A stretch of DNA of 6,988 bases from Escherichia coli (GTDB taxonomy: Bacteria; Pseudomonadota; Gammaproteobacteria; Enterobacterales; Enterobacteriaceae): assembly GCF_024298765.1 (NCBI RefSeq), contig NZ_CP101214.1. One strand, given 5' to 3'. Each line of letters opens with the position of its first letter. Positions within the stretch are counted from its first letter, which is position 1. The translations under genes were made by a program, and so were the position numbers. Positions 2,096-4,352 of the stretch are shown in pieces. The notes beneath the pieces were generated by a model. The model was not told the DNA's origin. It worked only from the letters and a program-made list of their open reading frames with translations, and ran no database searches.

Positions 2096-3742
2096 ATGGC
2101 TAAAGAACTAAGTGGATATGGACCAACTGCTGGTGAGTCTATGGGGGGAACAGGGGCGAATCTGAATCAGCAAGGTGGAAATAATAATAGTAATAGTGGG
2201 GTTCACTGGGGTGGTGGCTCTGGGCATGGTAATAATGGTGGTCAGGGAAATTCAAATTCATCTGGTTCTACATCAACTGTGATGAAAACCGGTGAGTCAT
2301 ATCTGACTCCGTGGGGTGATGTTGTCATTAATAATGATGGCCTTCCGGTGATGAATGGTATTGTTATGACAGAAGAGAATTCAACTCTGGTTGATAATCC
2401 ATTTGGAGGGGTCTCCAGAGTTCTTAATTCTTTAATTAGTGATATGCCATCACTTTTTGCAGAAAGCTCAGGAAATAACAACAATAACACTGCTTCAGTT
2501 AATACTGCACCAACGAATGCTCAGGTCAGTGATATGGATAAGAGTTCGAAGGTGGTGGGTAATGTAATTAATGAAAAACAAAAGCAGAAGAATAAAATTG
2601 CTACACAGATTAGTGAAAAACAGAAGAAAATCGAGGAGATGAAAAAAGTATTCAAGCATCATTCTTATCATGGTATCACTGATCTTGAGAGGGATGTTGA
2701 TGAGTTGCAAAAAAAATCAAATCAGCTTGATGCAGATATTAGCAAACTTAATTCTTATAAAAATACATTGCAAAGTAAAATTGGTGATGTGAATAAACAG
2801 AAGGAAGCTGAAGAAAAGGTTCGTGAAAATGCAGAGGTCGCTGAACATGAAACTCTTAATGAAGAGAAACAGGCGGTGGCGGAAGCAGAGAAGCGTTTAG
2901 CTGAGGCGAAAGCTGAACTGGCGAAGGCTGAAAGTGATGTACAGAGTAAGCAAGCTACTGTTTCCAGAGTTGCAGGAGAGCTTGAAAACGCTCAGAAGAG
3001 TGTTGACGTGAAGGTCACCGGATTTCCGGGATGGCGTGACGTTCAGAAAAAACTACAGCGTCAGCTTGAAGCTAAGCAGGCTGAGTACTCCGCAGTTGAA
3101 AATGAACTTAAGAATGCTGTTAGTTTCAGGGATGGTAAGGCCGCTGAGGTTAAAGAGGCAGAGCAGAAATTAAAAGAAGCTCAGGATGCTCTTGAAAAGA
3201 GCCAGATAAAAGATGCTGTTGATACTATGGTTGGATTTTATCAATATATAACCGAACAATATGGAGAAAAATACGCAAAAATTGCTCAGGATTTAGCGGA
3301 AAAGTCTAAAGGAAAGAAAATTCAAGGTGTTGATGAAGCTCTGGCAGCATTTGAAAAGTATAAGAATGTACTGGATAAGAAATTCAGTAAGGTTGATCGG
3401 GATGCTATTTTTAATGCGTTAGAGTCTGTTAATTATGATGAGTTATCTAAGAATTTAACGAAGATATCAAAGTCGCTTAAAATCACCAGTCGAGTATCTT
3501 TTCTATATGATGTTGGTTCTGATTTTAAAAATGCAATAGAAACTGGTAACTGGCGACCTTTGTTTGTCACGCTGGAGAAAAGTGCGGTCGATGTAGGTGT
3601 GGCAAAAATTGTGGCATTAATGTTTAGTTTTATTGTTGGTGTGCCTCTTGGTTTCTGGGGGATTGCAATTGTCACAGGTATTGTTTCTTCTTACATAGGG
3701 GATGATGAGTTGAGCAAACTTAATGAGTTGTTAGGGATTTAA
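2096..3742 (+). CDS. cka: Pore-forming colicin, most likely colicin K (548 aa)
   Basis: 548-aa ORF with a Gly/Asn/Ser-rich N-terminal domain (typical of Tol-dependent colicin translocation domains), a long charged coiled-coil central region, and a C-terminal domain with a hydrophobic helical hairpin ([35 protein letters not shown]) typical of pore-forming colicins. Length and N-terminus [15 protein letters not shown]... match my recollection of colicin K. SOS promoter upstream, immunity and lysis genes downstream. Confidence 0.85.
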
Positions 3743-4029
3743 TTTCTCTTTAGAGTGTAATATATGAAACTTGGCAATCCTACTGGGATTGCCATTAATA
3801 AATAAAACAATGCAGATAACTTGCATAAGTACCAGGGTTCTTTTTTTAACTTTGTATTTTCTTTGATATATCTAGATATGGTTAATTTAGAGTATGGATA
3901 TAGCAATACATGTATTGATGATATAAATATAAATAACAAAGGAGTGTTATCATTCTCGTTAAATATTAAAATAAGAATCCATGGTATAAGTGATTCAGGT
4001 AAATTATGTAGGTAGTATTTTAAATGCAT
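3739..4029 (-). CDS. cki: Colicin immunity protein (integral membrane, 96 aa), convergent with the colicin gene
   Basis: Minus-strand ORF immediately downstream of and opposite to the colicin gene, the arrangement typical of pore-forming colicin immunity genes. Very hydrophobic protein with several predicted TM segments ([35 protein letters not shown]). Its stop codon overlaps the colicin stop at TTAA 3739-3742. Confidence 0.85.
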
Positions 4030-4058
4030 AAGTATTTTTACTTTTGTTGGAAAGAAAT

Positions 4059-4190
4059 ATGAAAATAATAATTTTTCTAATTACAATATTATTCTTGTCA
4101 GGATGTCAAGCAAACTATATTCGTGATGTACAAGGAGGAACCGTTGCACCATCTTCGTCTTCTGAACTGACGGGGATCGCGGTTCAGTAG
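4059..4190 (+). CDS. ckl: Colicin lysis (bacteriocin release) lipoprotein, 43 aa
   Basis: ATG at 4059, TAG at 4188-4190; not in the ORF track because it is short. [43 protein letters not shown] has a signal peptide with an L-S-G-C lipobox and the conserved mature region of colicin lysis proteins. Last gene of the colicin operon. Confidence 0.85.
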
Positions 4191-4249: not shown

Positions 4250-4352
4250 ACGAAAAAACCGCCTGGGGAGGCGGTTTAGTCGAAGGTTAAGTCAGTTGGG
4301 GACTGCTTAACCGGGTAACTGGCTTTAGTGGAGCACAGATACCAAATGCTGT
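4250..4352 (-). ncRNA. RNA I antisense copy-number control RNA (about 100 nt)
   Basis: Minus-strand promoter: -35 TTGAAG (complement of 4383-4388), 18-bp spacer, -10 TACACT (complement of 4359-4364), start near 4352 (ACAGCAUUUGG...). 3' end has a hairpin, AACCGCCT / AGGCGGTT at 4257-4276, followed on the minus strand by a U-run. Fully complementary to the 5' end of RNA II. Confidence 0.8.

Follow-up and report, generated by a model that had tools for sequence, protein, structure and literature searches.

Layout of the colicin K translocation region and in-frame length variation of an Asn-Ser codon tract within it

The window, meaning the whole stretch of DNA that was analysed, is 6988 bp long and represents a complete pColK-type plasmid. 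Its colicin gene, cka, shared 99.9% nucleotide identity over 1647 nt with cka of pColK-K235 (NC_006881), and near-identity at ~99.9% was also found with more than 20 other plasmids annotated with cka, many of them 6988 bp in size. Pfam placed the colicin pore domain (PF01024, E = 8.9e-32) at aa 364-545 of the protein and ColA_N at aa 71-114. The gene belongs to a colicin K operon: it encodes a C-terminal pore domain and is followed by cki, which is encoded on the other strand, and by a lysis gene (Table 1). The sole Rfam match was RNAI at 4250-4350, with no RNA family within 2096-2530, and NCBIfam returned sub-threshold coiled-coil matches only. As the minus-strand ORFs at 2139-2261 and 2242-2490 were unsupported and lie within cka, whose status as a gene is well established, we discarded them as mechanical ORFs. 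Bases 2096-2530, to which the analysis was directed, very probably encode the translocation (T) region of colicin K, laid out as a disordered segment, a small folded domain and a disordered linker. The translocation region of colicin K is already known, ordinary biology and agrees with the established picture of how Tol-dependent colicins are imported.

Table 1. Features of the colicin K gene and its neighbours, in window coordinates.
Feature	Position	Strand	Basis
cka, colicin K structural gene, 548 aa	2096..3742	+	99.9% identity to NC_006881; Pfam
Gly/Asn/Ser-rich predicted disordered translocation segment, aa 1-61	2096..2278	+	Composition, shuffle test, AlphaFold2 pLDDT
Low-complexity core, aa 13-57	2132-2266	+	Composition and shuffle test
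Asn/Ser codon tract AAT AAT AAT AGT AAT AGT (N29-S34)	2180..2197	+	Length-variable; holds perfect (AATAGT)x2 at 2186-2197
OmpF-binding-site-2 (OBS2)-like motif, aa 36-45 (decapeptide)	2201..2230	+	Identity with E-type colicin residues 54-63
Mosaic joint, colicin K vs S4/U-like genes, Gly/Asn codons 41-50	2218..2245	+	Alignment vs S4 plasmid (L004)
Second hexamer duplication (AATTCA)x2 (N52 S53 N54 S55)	2249..2260	+	Exact tandem-duplication search
Colicin-A-type TolA box, aa 62-117, putative small beta-rich domain, not low complexity	2279..2446	+	Pfam, phmmer, AlphaFold2, Foldseek
Second predicted disordered linker, aa 125-146, Asn/Thr/Ala/Ser-rich, before coiled-coil receptor domain	2468..2533	+	pLDDT <50
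cki, colicin K immunity gene (context)	3739..4029	-	Pfam PF17500 CKI, E = 2.1e-56
Colicin lysis (release) gene (context)	4044..4190	+	Pfam PF02402 Lysis_col, E = 2.1e-24

An earlier note on this DNA, made from the letters, had described a repetitive, Gly/Asn/Ser-rich N-terminus, and we could confirm both the composition and the codon strings it quoted, which lie in place and in frame with ORF 2096-3742. Among the in-frame runs are GGA AAT AAT AAT AGT AAT AGT GGG at 2177-2200 (G28-G35), GGT GGT GGC at 2210-2218 and, within the second linker, the Asn5 run AAT AAC AAC AAT AAC at 2474-2488 (N127-N131). Residues 1-61 consist of 29.5% G, 16% S and 16% N (62% G+N+S), compared to 5%, 7% and 5%, respectively, in aa 146-548. 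The richest 45-residue window (aa 13-57) holds 33 G/N/S residues, a value that none of 20,000 shuffles of the protein reached (18.0 +/- 1.5, maximum 27), and an Asn run of at least 5 arose in 25 of 20,000 shuffles. The enrichment that had been ascribed to the first ~70 codons is therefore present, but its low-complexity core spans codons 13-61. Low complexity does not extend across the whole of 2096-2530, as the composition of aa 62-124 is ordinary (window entropy 2.8-3.5 bits, vs 1.9-2.6 bits for aa 16-57) and Pfam recognises a domain there. Because Gly, Asn and Ser are encoded by few codon types, micro-repeats are present in the DNA itself. Tandem Repeats Finder (score ≥ 30) reported nothing within 2096-2530, the repeats being too short, and a general repeat search gave short dispersed matches only, mostly due to chance. 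The only exact tandem duplications of at least 12 nt in the whole coding sequence were (AATAGT)x2 and (AATTCA)x2.

AlphaFold2 gave pLDDT values below 50 for aa 1-60 and aa 125-146, and on this model aa 1-61 and aa 125-146 are predicted to be intrinsically disordered; a helix begins at residue 143. Between the two segments, pLDDT was 74-85 for aa 61-120, with five strands. Pfam assigned the TolA box to PF22348 ColA_N (E = 2.1e-17), phmmer matched it to the colicin A (ColA) chains 3QDR_B (E = 1.4e-12) and 3IAX_B, and the best Foldseek match was again 3qdr_B (rmsd 1.7 Å, TM 0.79, 57% identity, probability 1.00). ColA Tyr-58 (SYNT) corresponds to colicin K Tyr-69 (SYLT). By homology and predicted fold, aa 62-117 form a colicin-A-type TolA box, the putative site of TolA binding.

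The import of colicin K (ColK) depends on Tsx, OmpF and TolABQR, and it is tabulated as a group A colicin (PMC9558359); its binding to TolA, TolQ and TolR is cited in a passage of PMC10424213. The reading of the N-terminus as typical of Tol-dependent colicin translocation domains was thus sound: the protein is a group A colicin, and its N-terminus can be aligned to the disordered regions with which colicins S4 and A and the E-type colicins translocate. The decapeptide at aa 36-45 recurs unchanged at residues 54-63 in an E-type (tRNase) colicin (L006), and OBS2 of ColE9 comprises residues 54-63 (PMC8561637, which defines its disordered domain, OBS1, TolB-binding epitope and OBS2). In the alignment of K, S4, U-like and 408-aa colicins, V36, H37, W38, G39-G41, S42, G43 and G45 were invariant, as were the flanking S34 and G35, but H44 was not. 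Unmasked Smith-Waterman alignment to the E-type colicin scored 137 vs 72 +/- 8 in shuffles, and the DNA match covered 60 nt at 81.7% (H100). The E-type match did not appear in BLASTP with composition adjustment, and the ColE9 matches that phmmer found with the full protein were lost with a 64-aa query. We consider aa 36-45 a candidate OmpF-binding epitope; the motif is Gly-rich, and such likeness arises more easily by chance or convergence.

The canonical TolB box, DG(S/T)GWSSE, was not found in colicin K, where aa 13-28 occupy its position without that core; the core was defined in PMC2821528, whose alignment leaves ColK out. ColK is TolB-dependent, yet lacks a canonical TolB box. According to PMC2649078, ColS4 has no canonical TolA or TolB box either, the TolB box being absent from the N-terminus that it has in common with ColK. 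Colicins K and S4, the U-like colicins and the 408-aa colicin have a nearly invariant N-terminal module (aa 1-49) in common. If ColE9 and ColA are a guide, aa 1-61 would thread through the OmpF pore after docking to Tsx and present short linear epitopes to the periplasm; Gly, Asn and Ser would hold the chain unfolded, thin and polar, and aa 125-146 would serve as a flexible Asn-rich linker leading to the coiled-coil receptor-binding domain. It is conceivable, albeit doubtful, that aa 1-49 engage TolB via a non-canonical epitope at aa 1-28, with (Asn-Ser)n spacing this epitope from the OBS2-like motif. If true, alleles with different copy numbers would differ measurably in import efficiency.

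The earlier note had also taken the repeats to be a substrate for recombination, and a mosaic joint between colicins K and S4 does fall in the Gly codons. Compared to the S4 plasmid (L004), identity was 95-100% from ~892 to 2217, with 2 mismatches in 2096-2217, and dropped to 45-68% from 2218. Over their first 43 residues, colicins K and S4 are given as 98% identical, and residues 1-67 of ColS4 were unresolved in its crystal structure (PMC2649078), which lends indirect experimental support to the predicted disorder of the ColK N-terminus.

Length variants between colicin alleles had been proposed as well, and these were found, as AATAGT occurred in 1, 2, 3 or 4 copies across records and both the hexamer and the Asn tract varied among homologues. 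An isolate census of the region gave 47 records of 435 nt, 6 of 441 nt and 1 of 438 nt, and a metagenome scan gave gap classes of 21, 27 and 33 nt, which correspond to 2, 3 and 4 copies. Variation was modest and two copies dominated (8/8 metagenome contigs and all listed isolate records of the S4/U-like type, and also most ColK records). Six isolate records carried three copies, as did three contigs from metagenomes, and four copies were present in two metagenome contigs from different records (L022, L036). One copy was present in a 4980-bp plasmid family; L003, P0005 and P0008 have one copy. No hexamer copy-number variation was seen among S4-type records (the isolate records listed and metagenome contigs). 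A search of a protein database with aa 1-160 returned only 12 proteins, most of them fragments with truncations or frameshifts, which gave extra tract variants. Each string inserted or deleted at the tract was exactly AATAGT, in register, and all variants were in frame. Whole-cka alignments confined indels to the hexamer and the Asn tract; in L001, for example, the additional 6 nt at the hexamer were the only indel relative to the window, accompanied by 2 SNPs.

Copies 2, 3 and 4 all occurred on a single haplotype (2558A/2820C), with zero other differences in 1647 nt. The tract is a perfect tandem unit with whole-unit alleles, as in a coding microsatellite, and its length has changed faster than point substitution on one haplotype. 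Because these three alleles share an otherwise identical cka, the pattern points to replication slippage; the allele pattern is the only basis for this reading. By adding or removing Asn-Ser dipeptides in the spacer that directly precedes the OBS2-like motif, slippage could yield the natural 548-, 550- and 552-aa alleles and the one-copy form in the related 408-aa colicin. Two perfect units are short for an active microsatellite, which weighs against slippage, as does the dominance of two copies. Independent events were few, as the expansions represent one lineage, and we count ~3-4 events for the hexamer tract.

Recombination could also change the length of the tract, through gene conversion or unequal exchange, whether among copies of one plasmid or between different colicin plasmids. 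pColK is a multicopy ColE1-type plasmid, as indicated by RNAI, dimer or multimer assemblies exist (two copies in L019, and 2-3 places in several isolate records), and the K/S4 joint lies in neighbouring Gly codons. However, the changes are exact single 6-nt units in a repeat of 12-18 nt, which is too short a substrate for homologous recombination; such changes are a classic product of slippage, and the flanks of the 2-, 3- and 4-copy alleles are identical gene-wide, with no imported segment visible. We thus regard recombination as an unlikely source of the length variants.

That Asn-Ser copy number is functionally tuned, such that the length of the spacer separating the segment at the TolB-box position from the OBS2-like motif alters import efficiency or target range and longer alleles are spread by selection, appears improbable to us. 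The tract does lie exactly between two conserved blocks, the corresponding spacer of E-type colicins is made of Gly-Ser dipeptides (GSGSG), and the 550-aa allele was present in metagenomes and in isolate records annotated Italy, Switzerland (strain S1-KEN), Brazil (frigatebird) and Thailand. Nevertheless, the segment is predicted to be disordered, two copies are the majority everywhere, distant homologues vary in length here without apparent pattern, and hitch-hiking on a mobilisable plasmid can explain the wide spread. Sequencing or assembly artefacts in low-complexity DNA are a very improbable origin of the length differences. Although some database fragments of cka are clearly frameshifted or truncated and the four-copy contig L036 has low coverage (cov 1.5), the four-copy allele was found in two contigs from separate records, L019 is covered at 285x, and the three-copy allele, always in frame and linked to SNP 2558A, recurs in three metagenome contigs and in six complete-genome or plasmid records that were deposited independently. 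Finally, a phase-variable contingency locus for colicin production was rejected as very unlikely: cka holds the homopolymers G6 (2143-2148) and A8 (2709-2716), and A8 is shortened to A7 with a frameshift in two metagenome contigs, but the repeat units within 2096-2530 are 3 or 6 nt, every variant seen was in frame, where the repeats of such a locus would shift the frame or the promoter spacing and switch expression, and the lesions in homopolymers fall beyond 2096-2530 and resemble ordinary loss-of-function mutations of a costly gene.

Under replication slippage, changes in Asn-Ser number are probably tolerated because the spacer is predicted to be disordered. When ColK and L002 were compared, no part of the gene was better conserved than the first disordered segment, which has 2 substitutions in 183 nt; aa 1-61 are therefore not freely drifting filler. 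The second linker had the highest substitution density of the gene in the same comparison (9 in 66 nt). Near 2470-2500, the expected length variation was limited to a one-codon difference of the Asn5 tract in divergent lineages (L002, L003, P0005, P0009), but the tract at 2474-2488 was invariant within classical colicin K. In L002 this difference (+AAA) was the only indel in a whole-gene alignment with 106 SNPs. No allele examined showed a length variant of the AATTCA duplication.

Overall, these results are of little consequence, and the reader of the raw sequence had rightly recognised a colicin translocation domain and a site of allele length differences. For specialists, ColK unites an OBS2-like motif of the E-type with a TolA box of the ColA type and has no canonical TolB box, though it is TolB-dependent. 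The natural 548-, 550- and 552-aa forms of ColK, which differ only by Asn-Ser units beside the OBS2-like motif, provide a ready-made series of spacer lengths for import studies. Translocation and receptor domains of colicin K have been engineered onto lysins (PMC10100823), and a map that tells the disordered parts from the folded ones has practical value for such engineering.

Several known systems resemble the one described here. In-frame coding microsatellites, which change by slipped-strand mispairing of 3n-nt units, share with the ColK tract a perfect unit, an integer ladder of alleles and an otherwise identical haplotype, but the ColK tract is very short (1-4 units), of low polymorphism and without on/off switching. 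S4/U-like plasmids are near-identical to ColK in the promoter, the upstream backbone and the first 122 nt of the gene, whereas sequence divergence is complete after the Gly tract, and S4 lacks the ColA-type TolA box and uses OmpW. The colicin A translocation domain (TolB box 9-20, TolA box 52-107; PDB 3IAX, 3QDR) has a homologous TolA box with the key Tyr conserved and a G/S/N-rich disordered stretch in front; in contrast to ColK, its TolB box is KGDGTGWSSERG, where ColK has another 12-residue sequence, and ColK bears a 10-residue N-terminal extension. E-type colicins such as ColE9 have a similar Gly-rich disordered N-terminal thread, an identical decapeptide at the OBS2 position, a short dipeptide-repeat spacer just upstream of it (GSGSG in the E-type) and dependence on OmpF and Tol, but ColK lacks the DGSGWSSENNPW TolB epitope and the folded E-type T domain, carrying a ColA-type TolA box instead, and its receptor is Tsx rather than BtuB. 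The closest system is that of pColK-K235 and related 7-kb Col plasmids, which share with the window the operon (cka, cki and lysis), the LexA-box promoter region and, in many records, the same 6988-bp size; there is no difference of substance from pColK-K235, and the window carries the majority two-copy (548-aa) allele.

The 6988 bases of the window are a complete small Col plasmid. The open reading frame at 2096–3742 matched cka of pColK-K235 and, equally closely, many plasmids of 6988 bp in E. coli, Shigella and Salmonella, and because this frame is cka, the stretch 2096–2530 corresponds to codons 1–145 of colicin K (ColK). Upstream, a LexA-box-like CTGTATATAAAACCAG was found at 2021–2036, followed by an overlapping second half-palindrome ending in ...ATATACAG, and a 13-nt AT-rich tandem repeat (TATTGTTTTTAATT ×2) occupied 2054–2080, between the LexA-like boxes and the ribosome-binding site. 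The entire cka promoter (2021–2080 region) was kept in K, S4 and U-like plasmids.

Features of the plasmid (window positions) and of colicin K (aa)
Feature	Position	Strand	Evidence
cka, colicin K, 548 aa	2096–3742	+	99.9% identity, full length, to cka of pColK-K235 (NC_006881)
ColA_N domain	aa 71–114		Pfam PF22348, E = 2.1e-17
Colicin pore-forming domain	aa 364–545		Pfam
Colicin K immunity gene	3739–4029	-	downstream of cka
Colicin lysis gene	4044–4190		downstream of cka, with immunity gene
RNAI antisense RNA, ColE1-type replication origin	4250–4350	-	Rfam RF00106, 77 bits
Predicted disordered segment	aa 1–60		pLDDT below 50
Predicted five short strands and short helix	aa 61–120		pLDDT 74–85
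Predicted disordered segment	aa 125–146		pLDDT below 50
Predicted long helix, start of coiled-coil receptor domain	aa 143 onward		pLDDT 71–89 (10-residue block means)

The earlier note had described 2096–2530 as a low-complexity, Gly/Asn/Ser-rich N-terminal domain, repetitive in its first ~70 codons and in a second run near 2470–2500. The codon strings that it quoted were in frame at the positions it named, namely GGA AAT AAT AAT AGT AAT AGT GGG at 2177–2200 (G28–G35) and AAT AAC AAC AAT AAC at 2474–2488 (N127–N131). Residues 1–61 contained 29.5% Gly, 16% Ser and 16% Asn; residues 146–548 were Lys/Glu/Ala-rich, with 5% Gly, 7% Ser and 5% Asn. The richest 45-residue window of ColK (aa 13–57) held 33 G/N/S residues; across 20,000 shuffled versions of the protein, the best such window averaged 18.0 ± 1.5 and reached at most 27, and 25 of these versions contained an Asn5 run. 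The low-complexity N-terminus is genuine, was read correctly and is ordinary, although its extent needs two corrections: the core is codons 13–61, and aa 62–124, in the middle of the stretch, are without low complexity. Repeats at the DNA level were tiny. Tandem Repeats Finder detected none in 2096–2530 at a score of ≥ 30, and within the whole coding sequence just two exact tandem duplications reached 12 nt, (AATAGT)×2 at 2186–2197 and (AATTCA)×2 at 2249–2260, each encoding Asn-Ser-Asn-Ser within aa 1–61.

An AlphaFold2 model of ColK aa 1–185, based on an alignment of six sequences, predicted that aa 1–145 split cleanly into disorder, fold and disorder. By homology and predicted fold, the folded part is a colicin-A-type TolA box. 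In phmmer, ColK 64–117 aligned to 3QDR_B, the ColA peptide from a co-crystal with TolA domain III (E = 1.4e-12), and this peptide was also the sole credible match of the model in a Foldseek search of the PDB (probability 1.00; rmsd 1.7 Å over 47 columns, 57% identity). TolA binding by ColA requires Tyr-58 in SYNT (PMC3365938), which corresponds to Tyr-69 in ColK (SYLT). Against plasmids, tblastn picked up only aa 62–121 in distant relatives, which came from Serratia, Klebsiella, Erwinia and Citrobacter.

The first disordered segment is not featureless, as most of aa 1–49 was invariant among colicin K, its 550-aa and 549-aa variants, a 408-aa colicin, S4 and a U-like colicin. ColK aa 36–45 were identical to residues 54–63 of an E-type tRNase colicin (L006), and residues 54–63 of ColE9 are OmpF-binding site 2, the part spanning the porin eyelet (PMC8561637). 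Unmasked local alignment of ColK 1–64 with the L006 N-terminus scored 137 (shuffles 72 ± 8; 0 of 2000 reached 137), and the E-type colicin match at the DNA level (H100) covered 60 nt at 81.7% identity. Alignment with L006 placed ColK aa 13–28 at the position of the TolB-binding epitope, but the DG(S/T)GWSSE core, highly conserved among the Tol-dependent colicins aligned in PMC2821528, was absent from them; ColK also differed at that position when aligned with ColA and with the relatives of ColA from Serratia, Klebsiella and Erwinia, all of which carry GDGTxWSxERG. The colicin S4 paper likewise described the common K/S4 N-terminus as without canonical Tol boxes, and S4 residues 1–67 were invisible in the crystal (PMC2649078). 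Tsx, OmpF and TolABQR are listed as used by colicin K (PMC9558359), and its binding to TolA, TolQ and TolR is reported in work cited by PMC10424213.

Length variants between alleles, which the earlier note had predicted, were found at the hexamer (one to four copies) and at the Asn tract (a difference of one codon). Among unique records spanning all 435 nt, taken from collections of plasmids and of complete E. coli genomes, the region measured 435 nt in 47, 441 nt in 6 and 438 nt in 1. By alignment, the 6-nt insertion mapped exactly to the hexamer repeat, giving (AATAGT)×3, and the 3-nt insertion (AAA) fell inside the Asn tract, after 2479. Over the whole gene, the 550-aa allele (L001) differed from the window by one 6-nt unit and 2 SNPs, and the divergent 549-aa allele (L002) by 106 substitutions and one Asn-tract codon, with indels only at these two tracts. 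The 408-aa colicin of the 4980-bp plasmid family, 79% identical to ColK over its residues 1–239, had one AATAGT unit fewer (one copy), one extra Asn-tract codon and a 3-residue gap where the homologous part ends. Both positions also varied among three database fragments (P0005, P0008 and P0009). A pattern scan of metagenome contigs, using conserved flanks and a variable gap, returned 29 loci: 24 with a 21-nt gap (two copies), three with 27 nt (three copies; L019, L023 and L041) and two with 33 nt (four copies; L022 and L036), and the 552-aa frame of L036 was intact. S4/U-like metagenome contigs had two copies in 8 of 8 cases. The Asn tract, an imperfect repeat, differed only between old lineages and showed no variation among the classical ColK alleles examined; no length variation was seen in (AATTCA)×2 or the GGT/GGC codons.

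Alleles with two, three and four hexamer copies shared one haplotype (2558A/2820C) and were otherwise identical over 1647 nt; therefore, at least two length changes occurred with zero point substitutions meanwhile. This is the pattern that slipped-strand mispairing is expected to leave in a perfect tandem repeat. Replication slippage probably adds and removes Asn-Ser units, changes that are probably tolerated because they lie in a flexible spacer. Recombination could also build a ladder, and receives less weight beside alleles that are identical outside the hexamer; so do adaptive tuning of Asn-Ser spacer length, set beside a two-copy majority and predicted disorder of the spacer, assembly artefact, set beside variants found in both collections and contigs, and a phase-variable switch, set beside steps of whole codons.

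The A8 run of cka at 2709–2716 read A7 in metagenome contigs L022 and L023 (one with the four-copy and the other with the three-copy hexamer), so that the protein ends after 235 or 233 aa; the cause is either a natural frameshift inactivating a costly toxin gene or an assembly error. The NCBI-derived fragment P0008 was out of frame upstream of the G6 run at 2143–2148 (codons 16–18) and in frame downstream of it, pointing to a frameshift or an error of sequencing at that run.

Identity between a colicin S4 plasmid (L004) and the window was 95–100% from ~892, across the promoter and up to nt 122 of the gene, with only 2 mismatches in 2096–2217. Identity collapsed from 2218, within the Gly/Asn codons for aa 41–50, and the boundary between the common N-terminus and the colicin-specific part therefore lies in low-complexity DNA. 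The proposal that the repeats are a recombination substrate agrees with the position of this joint, but one joint is no proof that the repeats caused it. Between ColK and L002, the first disordered segment was the best conserved part of the gene (2 substitutions in 183 nt), relative to 22 in 189 nt in the TolA box, 9 in 66 nt in the second linker and 73 in 1209 nt in the remainder; either constraint on linear epitopes or a recent exchange of the 5' module would fit this pattern.

Other loci carried related or disrupted genes. At L028 (8210 onward), sequence that looks like an IS2 end (TGGATTTGCCCCTATATTTCC...) breaks cka after ~2851 of the window, and fragment P0003 carries a peptide read through from cka into such sequence, suggesting that colicin K is insertionally inactivated in some assemblies. 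The 408-aa colicin locus (L003; NZ_CP010185.1, 629–2389) lies on 4980-bp non-mobilisable plasmids of mouse and human E. coli; its ColK-type translocation region falls within residues 1–239, its pore domain is only 38% identical to ColK, and no named colicin matched it. An unannotated 117-aa minus-strand frame there (1852–2205) is likely the immunity gene, and is followed by a lysis gene (2249–2389). On a large IncF plasmid (L005; NZ_CP075653.1, 2001–4147), a 498-aa colicin with an S4-type N-terminus has IS2 just upstream and is followed by cui (colicin U immunity) and then cki, which extends beyond the fetched stretch; the whole looks like a mosaic colicin locus. In a 116-kb sheep E. coli plasmid, 137 nt without an annotated CDS (H95; CP061837.1, 26055–26191) match gene nt 1–138 and may reflect a 1-nt deletion or an S4-type colicin pseudogene. 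Metagenome contigs L015 and L040 agree with the hexamer tract and with cka downstream of it, but differ wholly over ~50 nt or more at the gene 5' end, which indicates a rearranged or chimeric end, or misassembly.

No description of the allelic ladder of 1–4 Asn-Ser units or of the segment map was found in searchable papers, and both are small, unsurprising additions. Colicin K, its Tol/OmpF dependence, the Gly-rich disordered translocation domains of group A colicins and the common K/S4 N-terminus are already in the literature. By analogy with work on ColE9 and ColA, ColK would first bind Tsx and then pass a thin, polar Gly/Asn/Ser thread through OmpF; the Gly-rich motif would lodge in the OmpF eyelet, and the TolA box would next reach periplasmic TolA.
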